Assembly (NCBI GenBank): GCA_963785725.1
Contig: CAWAWS010000033.1
Coordinates: 256,001-320,000 of the forward strand
DNA: 64,000 nt
Source of the DNA: an uncultured delta proteobacterium
Lineage (GTDB): Bacteria; Myxococcota_A; Polyangia; Palsa-1104
Direction of reading: 5' to 3'
The notes under the pieces were generated by a model. The model made no database searches and was not told the origin of the DNA. It worked only from the letters and a program-made list of their open reading frames with translations. The translations under genes and the position numbers were made by a program. This document shows, one piece after another, positions 4,253 through 49,563 of the stretch (positions are counted from its first letter, which is position 1; every line of letters begins with the position of its first letter).

Positions 4253-4412
4253 GTTGTCAGGCAGGGAACCTGGTGAAAATCCAGGATTGCCCCGCAGCGG
4301 TGAGCAGGAACGACCGCCGTCACACGCACTGGCTTCGGCTGGGAAGCGACGGCTAGTAGAAGGCGAATCGCCGCGATTCGTCATGCCTGCGAGTCCGAAA
4401 ACCTCCTGACGA
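4253..4412 (+). ncRNA. Cobalamin riboswitch
   Basis: AGGGAA-CCTGGTGAAAATCCAGG-ATTGCCCCGCAGCGGTGA ... GCACTG ... GGGAAG ... B12-box-like GAGTCCGAAAACCT. Closing helix GTCAGG (4256-4261)/CCTGAC (4405-4410). Upstream of a B12-independent RNR. Confidence 0.9.
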
Positions 4413-36649: not shown

Positions 36650-37363
36650 TTAGACTTCGACTTTCAGCGTCGGCTTCGTGTTGGGGTAGATCTGCTCGAC
36701 GGCCGGTTCGTCGGGACCGGGCTTTTGCATGGCGAACGCATTGACCGGCTGCGATCGATTGATCCAGAGCGCGTAGTACAGATGATCGGACCGCGGGTCA
36801 TCGGTATTCGGATGCAGCAATATCGTCAACCCGAGACTATTGAGCTGCAGCCACGGCACCAGCACCGGCAGCAAATCGTTGGTGAAGCCGAAATAGAATG
36901 ACGGCGTCACGTGCGGACCGCGCGGCTGCAGATTCCAATTGCCGAGCTCGACCAGGAAGCGCTCCGCGACCCACTTACGAATCAGCGCCGCCTTTTCGTA
37001 GCTGTCTTCGTCGAAGTAGACGTGCGCGTGATAGCTCTCGATGTCGGTGTATTTGCGCGGCCGCGCCGGCAGCTGCTGCTCGCCCGGCCTGACGCTCGGC
37101 GGACGCGGCGTCGGCTCCTTGTACGTCTCGTAGCCCCACGGGCTGCGGCCGGGCGCGTGCGGCGGCGCCACGCGCGTCGCGGCCGCCGCGTTCGATCGAC
37201 CGCTCGGCGCTTCGCCGGCGACGGCGGCCCGCGCAGTCGCCGCGCGCGCCAGCGTCAACGCCGCCAAGCCCGCCGTCACCACCTGCCGGCGACTCGGTCC
37301 CAGCCGATCGGCCCAGGCTTGGTCATCGCCGCTCGGCTCGTCCTCTTGCGATCGTTCACTCAT
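36650..37363 (-). CDS. DOPA 4,5-dioxygenase-family protein with Tat-like signal
   Basis: SRRQVVTAGLAAL...ATARA; YHAHVYF, GPH, WLQLN..GL.ILLHPNT...DH...ALW. Confidence 0.8.
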   Translation of the reverse strand: MSERSQEDEPSGDDQAWADRLGPSRRQVVTAGLAALTLARAATARAAVAGEAPSGRSNAAAATRVAPPHAPGRSPWGYETYKEPTPRPPSVRPGEQQLPARPRKYTDIESYHAHVYFDEDSYEKAALIRKWVAERFLVELGNWNLQPRGPHVTPSFYFGFTNDLLPVLVPWLQLNSLGLTILLHPNTDDPRSDHLYYALWINRSQPVNAFAMQKPGPDEPAVEQIYPNTKPTLKVEV

Positions 37364-37383: not shown

Positions 37384-37965
37384 CTAGCTGGCGCGGCCGA
37401 CGGCGGTGGCGCGCTCGACCTCGATGAGCCGGCCGCTCTCGACCTGGTAGACGTAGCCGTAGATGGGGATGGCGCGCGGCACCAGCGGATGATTGCGGAT
37501 GCGCTCGACGTCGGTGGTGACGCTCTCGGCCTGCTCGCGGATGGTGAGCCAGTCGATGTAGTCGCCTTGGCGCGAGCCGGGACCGGCGCCGACGTCGCGC
37601 CACTGCTTGCCGTCGTGCTGCGCCGTGTGCAGGCTGGACGCGAGCAGGCCGCGGATGATCTCGTCGCTGAACAGCTCCATGCCGCAGCTCGAGTGATGAA
37701 TGACGAACCACTCCTTCGTGCCCAAGAGCTTGTGCGAGATGACGAGCGAGCGGATGGCGTCGTCGCTGGCGCGGCCGCCGGCGTTGCGGATGACGTGCGC
37801 GTCGCCCTCGGCGAGGCCGGCGTATTTGGCCGGATCGAGGCGCGCGTCCATGCAGGTCAAGATGGCGAAGCCGCGCGCCGGCGGCAGCGCCAGCTTGCCC
37901 TTGTCGCCGAACTCGGACGCGTAGCGCGCGTTGGCCTTCAAGACGTCTTCGCGAATCTGGCTCAT
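37384..37965 (-). CDS. Beta-class carbonic anhydrase (clade D-like)
   Basis: [34 protein letters not shown]. Confidence 0.92.
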
Positions 37966-38001: not shown

Positions 38002-38074
38002 TGGCGGCCCCTTCCGGGATTCGAACCCGGCTCGACGGTTTTGCAGACCACGCCATCCCAGATGGCAAGGAGCC
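38002..38074 (-). tRNA. Atypical tRNA with Cys anticodon (GCA), encoded CCA and G discriminator
   Basis: GGCTCCTT-GCCATCTGGGATGGC-GTGGT-CTGCAAA-ACCGT-CGAG-CCGGG-TTCGAAT-CCCGG-AAGGGGCC-G-CCA. T arm and anticodon loop are canonical. Confidence 0.8.
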
Positions 38075-38086
38075 AGAGTGTCTTCG

Positions 38087-38182
38087 TTACGACTGCGACT
38101 CGTGACGCTGCGCGATCGCCAGCAGCACGAGGTGGAACAACACGATGCCGAAGCCGAGCGTGTAGTCGACGACGCGGCTCAT
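38087..38182 (-). CDS. 31-aa single-TM microprotein
   Basis: [31 protein letters not shown]. The ATG overlaps the upstream stop (ATGA). Confidence 0.55.
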
Positions 38183-38505
38183 CGGGCGGCGCCCGCCGCC
38201 GCTATCGGCGCGACGTCCATGCCCGCGAGGATCGCCGCCAGTCGCGCCGGGCTGCAGCGTCGATAGAGCACGACCGGCACGCCGTGAGCGCGCGCCGCTC
38301 GCCGCGCGACGTGCACGGCGCCGTGGCTGTTGACGTCGGTGACGACGATGAGAAAGTCGACGCCGCGCGCCAGCAGATCGAGCGTGTTGCTGCCGCGTCC
38401 GCCGATGTGGCCCGAGTGAAAGGCGATCGAGTGCCCGCTACGCTCGGCGATCTCGCGATAGAGCGACTCGGTCCGTTCGACGCCGCCGACAATACCGATT
38501 CGCAT
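38179..38505 (-). CDS. DUF2325-like protein
   Basis: MRIGIVGG...FHSG...D..IVVTDVNSH.AV..AR..AR..GVP. Confidence 0.75.
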   Translation of the reverse strand: MRIGIVGGVERTESLYREIAERSGHSIAFHSGHIGGRGSNTLDLLARGVDFLIVVTDVNSHGAVHVARRAARAHGVPVVLYRRCSPARLAAILAGMDVAPIAAAGAAR

Positions 38506-38508
38506 AGA

Positions 38509-38895
38509 TCACCAGTGCCAAACCTGCTCGTAGCCTTCGAGCAGCTCGGCGAACGCGTGCGCGGCGATCGGCGTCGGTCCGTCGATGATCTCGTCGCGGG
38601 CGATGCCGCGCCGTTTCGCGTCATCCTCGACGTAGAACACGCGCACGCCTTTGTCGCCGAGCCGGCGCACGTCGTCGGCGAGCCGCGGCGGCTGCGTTTG
38701 CCGGCGTTCCCCGAAGGCGAGCCCGCTCGCGTCCTGATCGCGCACGACGTAATTGACCGCGTTGCCGCGCAGGAGCACGTCGGTGTCGGCGCCATTGCCG
38801 CGCAGCGACGTCACCAGCCACAAGACCGGATCGTCCTGCTCCTCGAGCGTCGCGCGATAAGCGGTCTCGACGATCTGCAAAATCTTCTTCGACAT
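38509..38895 (-). CDS. DsrE/F-like family protein (DsrF/TusC-like, no Cys)
   Basis: ILQIVETAYRATLEEQDD...VLLRGNAV...VFYVEDD..RRGI. Confidence 0.7.
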   Translation of the reverse strand: MSKKILQIVETAYRATLEEQDDPVLWLVTSLRGNGADTDVLLRGNAVNYVVRDQDASGLAFGERRQTQPPRLADDVRRLGDKGVRVFYVEDDAKRRGIARDEIIDGPTPIAAHAFAELLEGYEQVWHW

Positions 38896-38904
38896 GACGG
38901 CTCC

Positions 38905-39318
38905 TTACTTCGTGGGAATGACGAGCGTGTTGACCGAAGCCGCGACGAACTTGGCGAGGTCGGCGGGGCTGCCGCGGCGCGTGCCGGCGACCGCTTCGGC
39001 GACGCCGCGCTCGTCGACGCACAGGCCGCAGTTGACCCAATCGACTGTGACGGCGCGCGTCTCGGCCTCGGCGAGGATGGCGGCGATCCAATCCTTCGTC
39101 GTCGGATGATCTTCGAGGGCGGCGTCGCGGCCGTGCACGGCGTTGGCGTGCGGCGTCTGCTTGACGAACGGCAGCGCCACGGCGCCTTCGTAAGCGAAGA
39201 CGTTGACGTCGAAGCCGCGCTTGACGGCACGATCGATGAGGCGCAGCGCCGTCGTCGTGCGCGCGTTCTCGTAAGGCGGATCATTGAGCACGAACGTCAG
39301 CGATTGCTTGGTCGACAT
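38905..39318 (-). CDS. DsrE/TusD-like sulfur-relay protein
   Basis: PPYENARTTTALRL...VFAYEGAV...NCGLCVDERG; the Cys sits at the DsrE active-site position. Confidence 0.8.
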   Translation of the reverse strand: MSTKQSLTFVLNDPPYENARTTTALRLIDRAVKRGFDVNVFAYEGAVALPFVKQTPHANAVHGRDAALEDHPTTKDWIAAILAEAETRAVTVDWVNCGLCVDERGVAEAVAGTRRGSPADLAKFVAASVNTLVIPTK

Positions 39319-39327
39319 CTTGTCCTC

Positions 39328-39654
39328 CTAATGCCAGAGCGTCGTGTGGCCGGCGGCGAGCCGATCGATGACCGCGTCGAGGTCCGCCGGCGTGATGGCG
39401 GACGCCAGCCGTCCGGCGTGGATGCCGCGCTCGCGCAGCGAGAAGTCGTCGGCGAGGATCGCGACGCCGCTCGCGCGCAGCTCGTCGAGCACGCTCGATT
39501 CGGCCTGTGCGCGCGCCGGCAGCACGCCGTTCTGCACGAGGAAGAACGTCACCTCGTGCCGCTTGCGCGCCAGCGTCGCCGCCAGCCGATAGAAGTAATT
39601 GTCGTCGCCGGACTCGAAGGGATCGCGCGATTCGATCAGCAAATACTTGGCCAT
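39328..39654 (-). CDS. DsrH/TusB-like protein
   Basis: FFLVQNGV...LADDFSLRERGI...TLW; AGGAGGAG RBS. Confidence 0.7.
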   Translation of the reverse strand: MAKYLLIESRDPFESGDDNYFYRLAATLARKRHEVTFFLVQNGVLPARAQAESSVLDELRASGVAILADDFSLRERGIHAGRLASAITPADLDAVIDRLAAGHTTLWH

Positions 39655-39673: not shown

Positions 39674-39707
39674 AAAAAAGCCCGCCGGCGGGTGCGCGCG
39701 GCGGGCT
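39674..39707 (-). terminator. Intrinsic terminator (attenuator 1) upstream of the dsr-like genes
   Basis: AGCCCGCC-loop-GGCGGGCT followed by a T run, about 20 nt before the start codon. Confidence 0.85.
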
Positions 39708-39726
39708 CGGATGCAGCAAATCGCAA

Positions 39727-39810: not shown

Positions 39811-39839
39811 ACTATCCGTTATAACGGACGCGCTGTCAA
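39811..39839 (-). promoter_or_regulatory. sigma70 promoter with palindromic operator in the spacer
   Basis: TTGACA, 17 nt, GATAGT; perfect palindrome TCCGTTATAACGGA at 39815-39828. Confidence 0.7.
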
Positions 39840-40288
39840 GGGCGTAAATAGCGCCACTTCTTCTCCGGCTTGCCGTGCTTGCCGCGGCGATCGGTCGTCC
39901 AGCCGCTGCAGGCGGACATGTGCTTGAAGACATCGGCGGGATCGGCCAAACGATCGGGCACGATGGGCTCGCTGCACAGCCAGCAGATCGTGACCTCGGC
40001 CGCCTCTTCGGCGACGCGCCTGGGGCCTTTGACGGCGACGCGCAGCACGAGCTTGGCGCGCCGCAAGTGCTCGAGCGCGATCCTCGCCGCGCCGGATTCG
40101 AGCGTGCCCAGCCGAATCTCCTCGGCGACGCGGCGCTCGGTGTCGCGCAACGCGTCCAGCGAGGTCGGCACCTCGGCGCCTTGGCGCGCGACGCCCGCGT
40201 CCTCCGCGACCCGCTCGGCGAGCGGCGCCGATCGTTCCGCCGCGAGCAGTTGCGGCACTCCCAAGCGGCGTTGCTGAAGCATGCCCAT
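39836..40288 (-). CDS. Hypothetical protein with CxxC...HxxxC zinc-finger-like motif
   Basis: AGGAGA RBS; CWLC...HMSAC near the C-terminus. Confidence 0.6.
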   Translation of the reverse strand: MGMLQQRRLGVPQLLAAERSAPLAERVAEDAGVARQGAEVPTSLDALRDTERRVAEEIRLGTLESGAARIALEHLRRAKLVLRVAVKGPRRVAEEAAEVTICWLCSEPIVPDRLADPADVFKHMSACSGWTTDRRGKHGKPEKKWRYLRP

Positions 40289-40321: not shown

Positions 40322-40363
40322 AAAAGCAAAAAGCCCACCGACCCTCGCGGGCTGGTGGGCTTT
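40322..40363 (-). terminator. Intrinsic terminator (attenuator 2)
   Basis: AAAGCCCACC-loop-GGTGGGCTTT followed by TTGCTTTT. Confidence 0.85.
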
Positions 40364-40381
40364 GGACCGCGTTCAGCGTCC

Positions 40382-40456
40382 TTAACAGCGCGCTGACGGA
40401 CCGTCGCCCATGCATCGCCGACAACACGTCGCGCGGTCGATGATCGGGCAACCCAT
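40382..40456 (-). CDS. Cys-rich leader peptide 2 (24 aa, 5 Cys)
   Basis: MGCPIIDRATCCRRCMGDGPSARC with TGT-TGT at codons 11-12. Confidence 0.75.
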   Translation of the reverse strand: MGCPIIDRATCCRRCMGDGPSARC

Positions 40457-40462
40457 CCTTCG

Positions 40463-40492
40463 CTTTTATCCGTTATTGCGGATGAATGTCAA
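40463..40492 (-). promoter_or_regulatory. sigma70 promoter with second operator copy
   Basis: TTGACA (40487-40492) and AT-rich -10 (GATAAAAG); ATCCGTTATTGCGGAT at 40468-40483. Confidence 0.65.
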
Positions 40493-47019: not shown

Positions 47020-49563
47020 TTAGGATCTGGCGGCGCGACGCCGACGGCGATACGCCACGGCCAGCAGCGCGAGGAGGCTCCACATCCCCGCCGGCGAGCT
47101 CGCGCCGCGTTGCATCTCGCAGCTGCAGCCACCGCCGCTGTGACCAGCGCCGCCGCCACCGCCACCGCTGCCGTGACCGGCGTCGACGCCGCCGCCGGGC
47201 ACGCCCGCATCGTCGACGATGCCGCCGTCCGTCGGCGTCGCCGGGTTCGTGAAGTCGACGGCGATCGTGTGATCGGCCGTGACGTTGGTGAACGTATACG
47301 ACGTCGCCGCGCCGGTATCGAGCCCGTCGACGGTCACGTGCTGCACGACATATCCCGCATGCGGCGTGATCGTGAACGTCTGATCTTGGTTTTGCTCGAG
47401 CGTCACCGCGCCGCTCGGGTCGATGTCGCCGTTGGCATCCGCCGACGCCGTAATCGTGTAAGTGGCGACCGGATTCACCGTCAGGCCGTTTTGCTCGCGC
47501 AAGAGCTCGAACAGAATGTCCGGCCGCACGACGACATAATCGGAGTCGAGCGAATTGGCCACGTTCATGAAGCTGGTCGGCGTCACGCCTTGCCACGGCT
47601 GCGCTTGAATGACCAAGAAGCGAGGCTCCTTGCCGTCCCAGCCGGCCGCCGACGACGCGATGAACTGCTGCATCGCTTGCTCGTTCGTGCAGTAGTTGCA
47701 GGAGAGCGCCATGCTCGGCAGCTTGTTGTCGTAGATGGTCAGCCCGCCGCCGGTGTTCTGCGCGGTCAAGCCGAGCAGCGACGGCGCGTTATCGGCGTAG
47801 CTGTTGCCCACGTCGAGGTCGATGCCGCCCGTGATCGTGTTCCACACGGTGATGATGCGGAAGCCGGCGCGCTGCTCGTACGTGTCCGTCTTGGCGATGA
47901 ACTGTTGCAGCTGGCCGGCGTCGGTCCACGAGTTCGGATAGGTGTAGCCATAACCGGACGGGCCGGACAAGATGCAGTCGTTGTCGGTGGCGCTCGTCCG
48001 GTAATAGTCGAGCGCGCCCGGCATGGCGTCGACCATCGCCGGCGACATCGTCCAGCCCATCGGCACCATGCCGCGGCCGGCGTCGCTCCACAGCTTGCGC
48101 TCGAGGTGCTCGACGTACTGCAGGTTGTCGCCGTCGCTCAAGATGAAGGCGACGTACAGCTTGTTCGCCAGCGTCGGCTTCGGCGGGATCGGCTTGACGT
48201 GAATGGTGCGCGACATGCCGCTGTGCATCGTCAGGTTCGTCGAGAAGTCGCTGGCGATCGTGGCCACGCCGTACTGCGAGGCCAACGTCACGCCCGAGCC
48301 TTCGTCGGTCCACCAACCCATCCAGCGTCCGCCGGCGCCCATCGACGCCAAGAACTGCTTCAACAGCGGCGTGTCGCTCGCCTGCGTCGGATCGAGCCAC
48401 AGCGCGGCCACGCCCAGCGCCGTCGCGTACTCGCGCACGGCGGCGCGGTTCGTCGGGTTGAGCCCGATGGCGACGCGATGATCGAGGGTGGGCCAGACGT
48501 TGTCGTAGAGGTATTGATAGACGGCGAGCTTGCTCGTGAACTGCCCGCGCAGATCCTGCAAAATCGGCAGATTGTAAGGCGCCGCCGTCAGCTTGGCGAC
48601 GAGGCTCGGCGCGACCACGAGCGCCTTCTTCGGCCCGGCCAACGTCGTCGCCAGGTTGACCGTATCGGGCTGCGCGTTCTCGAACACGATGATGCCGGCG
48701 ATCTCGCTGCGATACTTCGTGATCAAGCTCCAGTTGTCGGTCACGTCGGTGTATTGCAGCCCGAGCGACTGCAGCCAGGTGTGCGGCCCTTCGGCGAAGG
48801 CGTCGCCTTCGTACGAGAAGATGCGCGGCTGCGTGGCGTTGACGATGCCCTTCAACGACGCGAACAGCACCAGCTCGTCGTCGGCCTGGCTCTTCGTGAC
48901 ACCGACCCAGTTGACCTTGATATAGGCGGCGCCGAGCCAAAAGACGCGCAGCTCGAGCTGATGATTGTCGGCGCTCAGCGTAAACGGCAGCGACAGCGTC
49001 GTATAGGTCGCGGCGACGGGAAACTGCGTGCGCGTGAAGGTCTGGCTGGCGACGACCTGGTTGGCGGTGGCGTCGTTGACCTCGAGCCGGACGACGGGAT
49101 TATTGTCGGCCGTGTTGTTGTCGATGATCATGCTGAACTGCGCCGTGTTCGCGCCCGCCGGCACCGTCGTGTCGTACGGTCCGTAGATCATGTAGGCGTT
49201 GGCCGTGTCGACGTTGACCTGGCACAGCCAACCGTCGTTATCGAGGTGGCCGGTGTTGTGCGAAAGCTGTGTACCGATGGCGCTCCATTGTTGCGGCGCC
49301 TCTTGCAGCTCGATCAAATCCTGCACCGGCGCCGGCGTCGGAAAGGACGGCAGCAGCTGATCCGCGGGCCAATTGATCGTCGCCGGCAGCGCCGCGGGGT
49401 GCAGCGACGTCGCCGCCGACAGCTGCTGCGTCGGCGCCGGCGAGCAAGCGGCGCAGCTCGCGATGAGCGCGAGGCCGAGCCAGCGGCGACGCGCGTGATA
49501 CGTCGCCGCCACAGCGTTCGGCCGATTGATCCATCGCGCAGCTTCGATTTTCAGGGGTGTCAC
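47020..49563 (-). CDS. GxGYxYP-family putative glycoside hydrolase with MYXO-CTERM anchor
   Basis: SDGDNLQY, PMGWT, SGYGYTYP; Ig-like repeat; C-terminal GGGCSC...LLALLAVAYRRRRR. Confidence 0.85.
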   Translation of the reverse strand: MTPLKIEAARWINRPNAVAATYHARRRWLGLALIASCAACSPAPTQQLSAATSLHPAALPATINWPADQLLPSFPTPAPVQDLIELQEAPQQWSAIGTQLSHNTGHLDNDGWLCQVNVDTANAYMIYGPYDTTVPAGANTAQFSMIIDNNTADNNPVVRLEVNDATANQVVASQTFTRTQFPVAATYTTLSLPFTLSADNHQLELRVFWLGAAYIKVNWVGVTKSQADDELVLFASLKGIVNATQPRIFSYEGDAFAEGPHTWLQSLGLQYTDVTDNWSLITKYRSEIAGIIVFENAQPDTVNLATTLAGPKKALVVAPSLVAKLTAAPYNLPILQDLRGQFTSKLAVYQYLYDNVWPTLDHRVAIGLNPTNRAAVREYATALGVAALWLDPTQASDTPLLKQFLASMGAGGRWMGWWTDEGSGVTLASQYGVATIASDFSTNLTMHSGMSRTIHVKPIPPKPTLANKLYVAFILSDGDNLQYVEHLERKLWSDAGRGMVPMGWTMSPAMVDAMPGALDYYRTSATDNDCILSGPSGYGYTYPNSWTDAGQLQQFIAKTDTYEQRAGFRIITVWNTITGGIDLDVGNSYADNAPSLLGLTAQNTGGGLTIYDNKLPSMALSCNYCTNEQAMQQFIASSAAGWDGKEPRFLVIQAQPWQGVTPTSFMNVANSLDSDYVVVRPDILFELLREQNGLTVNPVATYTITASADANGDIDPSGAVTLEQNQDQTFTITPHAGYVVQHVTVDGLDTGAATSYTFTNVTADHTIAVDFTNPATPTDGGIVDDAGVPGGGVDAGHGSGGGGGGAGHSGGGCSCEMQRGASSPAGMWSLLALLAVAYRRRRRAARS

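Follow-up and report, generated by a model that had tools for sequence, protein, structure and literature searches.

A conserved accessory tRNA with a cysteine anticodon, an 8/5 fold and G73 in operons of an apparent sulfur-starvation regulon

The window (the whole stretch of DNA analysed, 64,000 nt from contig CAWAWS010000033.1 of an uncultured delta proteobacterium) includes a single tRNA gene, which ARAGORN called as tRNA-Cys(GCA) on the minus strand at 38074-38002. It lies in a minus-strand operon in the order three DsrE-like genes, a DUF2325 gene, a 31-codon ORF, the tRNA, a beta-carbonic anhydrase gene and a Dopa dioxygenase-like gene, and the features of the operon and of the region upstream are listed in Table 1. 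The operator that lies between the promoter hexamers is the palindrome TCCGTTATAACGGA. No family was found for the 31-codon ORF, nor was there a tblastn match to it in the other loci tested.

Table 1. Features of the tRNA locus, with positions in the window
Feature	Position	Strand	Remarks
Accessory tRNA, GCA anticodon, 8/5 fold, G73, encoded CCA	38002..38074	-	73 nt; ARAGORN, sequence and homologues
Acceptor stem, 5' strand, 8 nt	38067..38074	-	Partner strand 38013-38006; 56/56 cells paired in 7 copies
Discriminator G73	38005	-	CCA encoded at 38004-38002
Compact D hairpin, 5 bp, UGG loop	38053..38065	-	Invariant in 7 copies
Anticodon arm, top two pairs weak	38035..38051	-	17/17 identical to array tRNA-Cys (L278)
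Dopa 4,5-dioxygenase family gene	36650..37363	-	Probably last operon gene
Beta-carbonic anhydrase family gene	37384..37965	-	Directly 3' of tRNA
31-codon hydrophobic ORF	38087..38182	-	ATGA overlap with DUF2325 stop
DUF2325 protein	38179..38505	-	Commonest neighbour of accessory tRNA
Three DsrE-like genes	38509-38895, 38905-39318, 39328-39654 (38509..39654)	-	Co-operonic with tRNA in source genome only
GC-rich hairpin and U tract, attenuator terminator	39674..39708	-	Between leader 1 and first DsrE gene
Leader peptide 1, 25 aa	39727..39804	-	UGU-UGU at codons 11-12
Sigma-70-like promoter with palindromic operator	39811..39839	-	Operator 39815-39828, between hexamers
150-aa ORF, no family	39836..40288	-	Behind leader 2
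Second operator, leader peptide 2 and terminator	40329..40482	-	Operator 40469-40482; leader 40456-40382, five Cys

An earlier note on this DNA had described the tRNA as non-canonical, and most of the anatomy it gave was borne out. The 8 nt between the T stem (5 bp) and the discriminator do pair over 8 bp, including three G-U pairs, the 3' end is G-CCA, the anticodon (38044-38042) is that of tRNA-Cys, the 5-bp anticodon stem includes two G-U pairs, and the variable region is short (4 nt). In the D arm, the compact hairpin with its UGG loop stands but the sixth (outer) pair does not, being unpaired in two of five aligned copies, and the conserved arm is a 5-bp stem that is closed by a 3-nt UGG loop and preceded by a 1-nt linker. 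A 7-bp acceptor with a bulged A is an unlikely but conceivable reading, the innermost U-A being constant among the copies of the core form defined below; that this pair is C-G in variants from family f4 backs it as a pair. A tRNA-His-like reading (G-1:C73) was ruled out, as the encoded end that follows is G-CCA in six of the seven core copies and G-CTA in one. The minimum-energy fold is a cloverleaf with z = -1.3, so that the fold energy by itself proves nothing. When six core copies were folded, the cloverleaf was bettered in energy by a rod-like fold in three, through pairing between the 3' side of the T arm and the D-loop region. No Rfam match reached the gathering level, the best match below it being to tRNA-Sec (RF01852; 32.6 bits against a gathering score of 47), and the same model gave no match across eight homologue loci.

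The gene is real and not an assembly error, because six other genomes have it at identical length and with G73, and because in two soil studies contigs span the gene without gaps, in full (X1) or for the most part (X4), a comparison that speaks to coverage and gaps and not to the base at 38005. The source genome also has a housekeeping tRNA-Cys and an array tRNA-Cys, both with U73, as well as a tRNA-Sec. Hence, the GCA/G73 gene is an accessory one.

The core form, with GCA, an 8-bp acceptor, G73, the compact D hairpin and a variable loop of 4-5 nt, was found in seven copies, namely in the source genome and in six genomes of family f10. A class-wide pattern for GCA tRNAs without U73 matched in 14 of 401 genomes, the matches being the source gene, four core copies (G846, G813, G882 and G828), two variants (G140 and G845), a different tRNA-Cys (G875) and six that are not tRNA-Cys. 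All 138 genomes of f10 yielded eight matches and added a core copy in G914, and a search with the D hairpin, which matched in 20 of 147 genomes, returned six core copies (that in G903, with C33, was new), one array tRNA-like gene with a CCA anticodon and 13 sequences that are not tRNAs. In family f4, eight of 201 genomes matched, with three variants (G140, G699 and G673) and five array tRNA-Cys with U73. As the patterns are blind to copies with other letters in the loops or the T stem, these counts are lower bounds. Another GCA tRNA without U73, which belongs to a different tRNA family, has a C1-G72 acceptor and lies upstream of an apparent Rsr gene (L290:1470-1543 in G875 and L322:1500-1573 in G943).

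The distribution is patchy, with the core form in 6 of 138 f10 genomes and in none of the 41 other genomes of the order of the source genome, to which the G-CCA pattern was applied; a DNA search of its own family found the accessory tRNA in none of 14. Two of 400 other genomes in a sample of the phylum matched, both with tRNA-Ala, and the one match in 241 genomes of the class of a Vitiosangium genome was judged from the matched text not to be a member. A scan of metagenomes with a narrow pattern gave one match, which was no tRNA. In viral contigs, the exact D hairpin and anticodon loop had no matches, and the G-CCA pattern revealed no 8/5 tRNA among 80 of 110 stretches. A phage tRNA with GCA, a 7-bp acceptor, A1-U72 and G73-CCA was observed in two viral contigs (L176 and L179, 301-375).

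The seven core copies are 95 % alike, and the eight acceptor pairs, G73 and GCA are present in all seven. With homologues conserved in six further genomes, and seven intact copies across two families, the suggestion in the earlier note of a decaying gene is not supported. The 56 acceptor cells, all of them paired, include one double change and four one-sided ones, but 46-82 of 500 shuffles reached the observed values and the covariation is by itself not significant. Three of the four variants (G140, G699 and G673) are best read as having 7 bp and A73, and in the fourth (G845) the acceptor is long and comes with U1-G72 and U73. All that is common to the three acceptor solutions (8 bp with G73, 7 bp with A73, and long with U1-G72 and U73) is GCA and an acceptor unlike that of tRNA-Cys. 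A normal tRNA-Cys with U73 is present in all 11 carriers (seven core, four variant).

The tRNA-Cys of Myxococcus phage Mx1 (OR576727.2, near 48887-48960; L376:1497-1570), which is absent from the GenBank annotation, matches the accessory tRNA exactly in the 13-nt D hairpin and almost exactly in the anticodon arm, but it has a 7-bp acceptor and U73. A similar 7/5, U73 tRNA body is found in a Vitiosangium genome, and the 13-nt D hairpin is also in an array tRNA with a CCA anticodon. The compact tRNA-Cys of Mx1 and the arrays therefore resemble the accessory tRNA in the D hairpin, the 1-nt linker, the anticodon arm (nearly equal) and the 4-nt variable loop, but they are 7/5 tRNAs with U73 that lie in tRNA clusters, whereas the accessory tRNA is 8/5, has G73 and is solitary in sulfur-starvation operons. 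We infer that the compact D arm was inherited from phage or array tRNAs, which would leave one extra acceptor pair and G73 as the only derived features if the direction of change was as we suppose. The parent form (7/5, U73, as in Mx1) is thus two features away and provides natural controls. Because the tiny D loop is common to phage and array tRNAs, it is no tRNA-Sec trait here. An array tRNA-Trp or tRNA-Asp, which have the D hairpin in common, was considered as the source, and the anticodon arm and Mx1 favour tRNA-Cys. A tRNA-Pro called by ARAGORN in Mx1 (L376 1908-1983) is also missing from the GenBank annotation. The source genome (G000) has two arrays with irregular tRNAs (C3:124900-129400 and C39:623900-627500), both presumably accompanied by Rsr/Ro60 and RtcB-like genes. 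In the array tRNA-Trp, no bases separate the D hairpin from the acceptor stem, the anticodon stem has 7 bp and the variable region is 2 nt long.

DUF2325 adjoins four of the seven core copies and all four variants, and the accessory tRNA is in only two of 29 DUF2325 loci. Residues G7, G8, H30, G32, N59, S60, H61 and R68 are invariant in an alignment of 31 DUF2325 sequences, which suggests that they form an active or binding site. The source genome has three paralogues, and Myxococcota is the commonest phylum among the DUF2325 clusters (Atlas), on which ground the class that carries the tRNA is probably myxobacterial; the Atlas gave DUF2325 alone, and no solved relative was found by sequence (best E 0.14). 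The link to sulfur chemistry by the Dsr trio that the earlier note had considered was not supported, since a T-arm scan found a similar tRNA at none of 80 trio loci (the best 80 of 180 relatives) and there was no Dsr match within about 1.5 kb of the tRNA in the other carriers. Low-threshold ARAGORN predictions at trio loci, among the matches listed, were dismissed as noise. In profile searches, one of which covered 35 of 74 flank ORFs, the neighbours in other carriers were a TauD-family dioxygenase (three carriers; the best scores, below the cut-off, were to the TmpA and gamma-butyrobetaine dioxygenase models), a family 2A encapsulin and/or its cysteine desulfurase (three carriers), a glutathione S-transferase, an XRE-cupin regulator, a rhodanese, cysK and an OprO/P porin. 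The accessory tRNA is the sole tRNA of its locus in all carriers, and in G882 it is the first cistron after the promoter and operator. A serine-hydrolase gene recurs beside the tRNA cassette (L291, L321 and L377), as Pfam Ser_hydrolase in G828 and as look-alike gene starts in G914 and G903.

With up to one mismatch, the operator palindrome occurs at seven sites in the source genome; 60 shuffled palindromes averaged 0.65 sites, with two of them reaching seven. A looser search gave 25 sites. Sites lie before or beside genes for a sulfate permease, a sulfur-transport protein (YeeE-type), SfnB-like and SfnG-like proteins and an alkanesulfonate monooxygenase, at a DsrE-like/DUF2325/porin cluster and at an XRE-cupin regulator gene (C2, L127:4047-4676). 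Others are by benzoate-catabolism, AMP-ligase or unassigned genes, so that either the regulon is not purely one for sulfur or some sites are due to chance. The palindrome appears to mark many sulfur-scavenging genes across the class, and the putative XRE-cupin regulator, which we take to resemble E. coli SutR, probably binds it.

The operators in the window are followed by cysteine-rich leaders and terminators (Table 1), though the hairpin at 39674..39708 is absent from the output of a simple terminator scan. In a genome of the same genus (L248:1310-1500), an operator, leader and terminator likewise precede DUF2325, a Cys-Cys leader lies upstream of the first DsrE gene in L022, and a Cys-rich leader ORF precedes the Dsr trio in Vitiosangium. 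The leader Cys codons are UGU in five of seven cases, compared with 14 % genome-wide (p = 9e-4). For all three leaders folded as nascent transcripts, stalling of the ribosome at Cys-Cys releases a stretch able to pair with the 5' arm of the terminator; in folds of the full-length leaders the terminator is retained in both ribosome states, and the antiterminator is found in the nascent-transcript fold only. On this modelling, the Cys-Cys leaders and terminators are a probable cysteine-sensing ribosomal attenuator. The tie to sulfur starvation proposed earlier is thus supported by the operator, by the Cys-leader attenuators and by sulfur-gene neighbours in other genomes. The accessory tRNA gene is conserved in two families of one class in operons with the palindromic operator, which it has in common with sulfur-scavenging genes, and its conserved context appears to be a sulfur-starvation regulon, with predicted induction, and not the Dsr trio.

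By its defining features, the accessory tRNA does not belong to the known groups. Canonical bacterial tRNA-Cys shares GCA with it but has U73 and a 7/5 fold, as opposed to G73 (all seven core copies) and eight pairs. Like tRNA-Sec, bacterial forms of which include some with a GCA anticodon, it has an 8/5 acceptor domain, G73 and a long D stem with a tiny loop (PMC7609411, PMC11415595); it differs in having no long variable arm, a 5-bp anticodon stem and no sel genes in the flanks read. The selC* tRNA-Cys or tRNA-ReC described by Mukai 2017 (PMC5389517) are likewise accessory tRNAs with an 8-bp acceptor and GCA, but they are described there with U73, a long variable arm, an 8/4 fold with a bulge and linked selB*/cysS*, whereas the five carriers tested have one full CysRS each and no second cysS, and a scan of 35 of the 74 flank ORFs detected no selB. 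The allo-tRNAs of the same study are non-canonical accessory tRNAs with G73 and an anticodon at odds with acceptor identity, as here, but their 12-bp branch (8/4 or 9/3) and long arm make them SerRS substrates, in contrast to a 13-bp branch (the 5-bp T stem is invariant) and a short arm (PMC5389517). The tRNA-ProX/ProRSx pair of Streptomyces is another case of an accessory tRNA of mixed identity in soil bacteria, with a non-U33 loop (found here in one copy), but tRNA-ProX has its own synthetase (PMC11415595), and here none was found for Cys or Ser and there is a clear regulatory context instead. Finally, the tRNAs of the L-array (trn operon) lie in a long tRNA cluster and the accessory tRNA is solitary. 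Among titles and abstract openings in the literature, no such tRNA was found, though supplements (e.g. that on irregular tRNAs in Mukai 2017) and subscription papers may hold one. Hence, a conserved non-canonical accessory tRNA with a sulfur-starvation context, and a role predicted from sequence, is apparently undescribed. Since Rfam misses it and ARAGORN labels it a plain tRNA-Cys, annotations conceal genes of this kind.

U73 and GCA are the major determinants for CysRS (PMC9976931). As the earlier note had suspected, the tRNA is probably not a CysRS substrate, with U73 lost and the acceptor one pair too long. Each of five carriers tested has one CysRS, one SerRS over the cut-off and one SelA. 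A comparison of carriers with five non-carriers found no carrier-specific columns in CysRS (492 gap-free columns) or in SerRS, and no dedicated synthetase was found when the CysRS and SerRS families were counted in the five carriers. We consider it likely that the tRNA is functional, sulfur-regulated and a poor substrate for CysRS, and it probably either remains unloaded, as a decoy, or inserts another amino acid at Cys codons.

Our best reading, tentative and somewhat short of an even chance, is that of a starvation-induced, uncharged decoy for Cys codons and CysRS. The tRNA would be transcribed when sulfur or cysteine is short, then cut out and matured. With GCA kept, charging by CysRS presumably lost (U73 gone, acceptor too long) and no other synthetase expected to be efficient, the uncharged look-alike could compete for the anticodon site of CysRS and/or enter the A site at UGU/UGC, so that cysteine would drain more slowly into bulk protein and pausing at Cys codons would deepen. 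It would also keep open the Cys-Cys attenuators of the regulon to which it belongs, and it might trigger RelA. This reading is ranked first because GCA and an acceptor unlike that of tRNA-Cys are all that unites the three acceptor forms, because no synthetase fits and because the features for decoding are relaxed. Counted in its favour are the invariance of G1-C72, G2-C71, G73, GCA, the D hairpin and the T stem across the core copies, the relaxed top of the anticodon stem (85.7 % paired) together with C33 in one core copy (G903), and the presence in the A73 variants of C2-G71, which is a SerRS antideterminant (PMC9976931). An operator within 3 kb was also counted for it, and this was found for six of the seven core copies (upstream in four), one of four variants and none of 14 U73 controls, the contig of the seventh core copy ending early and the flanks being shorter in 12 of the 14 controls, for most of them about 1.5 kb on either side. 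Counted against it, the constant G73 is not independent evidence, as copies so alike probably have a single origin; the four variants, of which one alone has an operator nearby, may be degenerate and not equivalent forms; G73, G1-C72 and G2-C71 also make up the serine acceptor set; and what a decoy would gain is not evident, since uncharged tRNA-Cys builds up in starvation anyway. If the decoy is real, it would represent a regulator of a new kind, an uncharged tRNA dedicated to the rationing of cysteine.

A close second, possible if on balance unlikely, is that SerRS (TrpRS being less likely) charges the tRNA weakly and EF-Tu delivers serine to UGU/UGC in starvation, with the weak anticodon stem and C33 damping the error rate. 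It is placed so near because the benefit is clearer, the regulation fits, and both derived traits, G73 and the 8-bp acceptor, are traits of tRNA-Sec, for the serylation of which G73 is the strongest element in E. coli (PMC9976931). Serine identity resides mainly in the long variable arm, with help from G73, G1-C72 and G2-C71 (PMC9976931); the accessory tRNA has these acceptor elements and, of the bacterial Ser identity set, G73, C72, G2-C71, C11-G24 and G30-C40, but it lacks R4-Y69 and the main determinant, its variable region being 4-5 nt in all core copies. The single SerRS of the carriers retains its N-terminal arm and has no carrier-specific residue. Binding of 13-bp acceptor domains by EF-Tu is minimal, and an engineered 13-bp tRNA is nevertheless delivered (PMC11231383). 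Precedents exist in allo-tRNA-Ser with Leu anticodons (PMC5389517) and tRNA-ProX with its non-U33 loop (PMC11415595), but insertion of serine would leave the A73 variants unexplained, and the proteins of the operon show no significant shortage of Cys (5 in 942 codons, p = 0.12). In a broader form, which we regard as doubtful, a sulfur-repressed, short-arm tRNA that is serylated or otherwise charged would decode UGU/UGC and feed back on the attenuators, a starvation-gated ambiguity of the code that would give a proteome with less sulfur during sulfur shortage. The predictions for the Cys-Cys attenuators are opposite, as a decoy would keep them open and a charged tRNA would shut them. The question of deliberate mistranslation versus rationing of a codon whose amino acid is in short supply is thus made testable by a 73-nt gene. 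The cue and purpose of expression of tRNA-ProX are given as unknown (PMC11415595); unlike it and the allo-tRNAs, the accessory tRNA brings its cue with it, in the form of a sulfur-starvation operator and Cys-Cys attenuators.

It is improbable that the tRNA has no decoding role and is a tRNA-shaped element for processing or stabilising a polycistronic mRNA, or a recently spread passenger. Its position, always between or before genes and with some tens of bases to the next start, and its patchy distribution would suit such a role, but the neighbours change while the tRNA stays nearly identical and keeps GCA, it is the first cistron in G882, and a processing signal would not need a Cys anticodon. 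More improbable again is an ordinary Cys tRNA, charged by CysRS (perhaps poorly) for extra Cys decoding in starvation. Retention of GCA in 11 of 11 copies and of G2-C71 would fit, as would the charging in vivo of 23 of 26 Anabaena array tRNAs (PMC8421152). The tRNA-Cys of some methanogens does have G73, A73 or C73, but with an altered CysRS (PMC8762117), which was not seen in the carriers; here a major determinant is gone, C3-G70 is kept in only two of seven core copies, and an extra tRNA is of no help if cysteine is limiting. A scaffold for tRNA-dependent cysteine synthesis, on which Ser-tRNA would become Cys-tRNA via SelA or a persulfide relay (DsrE, cysteine desulfurase), is very improbable, since the Sec-like 13-bp acceptor domain and long D stem, the desulfurases near the tRNA in three carriers and SelA in six of six core carriers tested are offset by the unlinked Dsr trio, by the serylation required first, and by SelA itself, which has no second copy, is absent from variant carriers G140 and G699 and, being equally present in non-carriers (four of four), is uninformative in its co-occurrence.

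Two further RNA features were noted. In the source genome (C3:63575-63650, plus strand; L134), a tRNA-like element with a T arm and a G-CCA end, missed by both ARAGORN and model R1, lies near KaiC/KaiB-like genes. In the window, a cobalamin riboswitch is present at 4263-4404 (Rfam, 73.3 bits).
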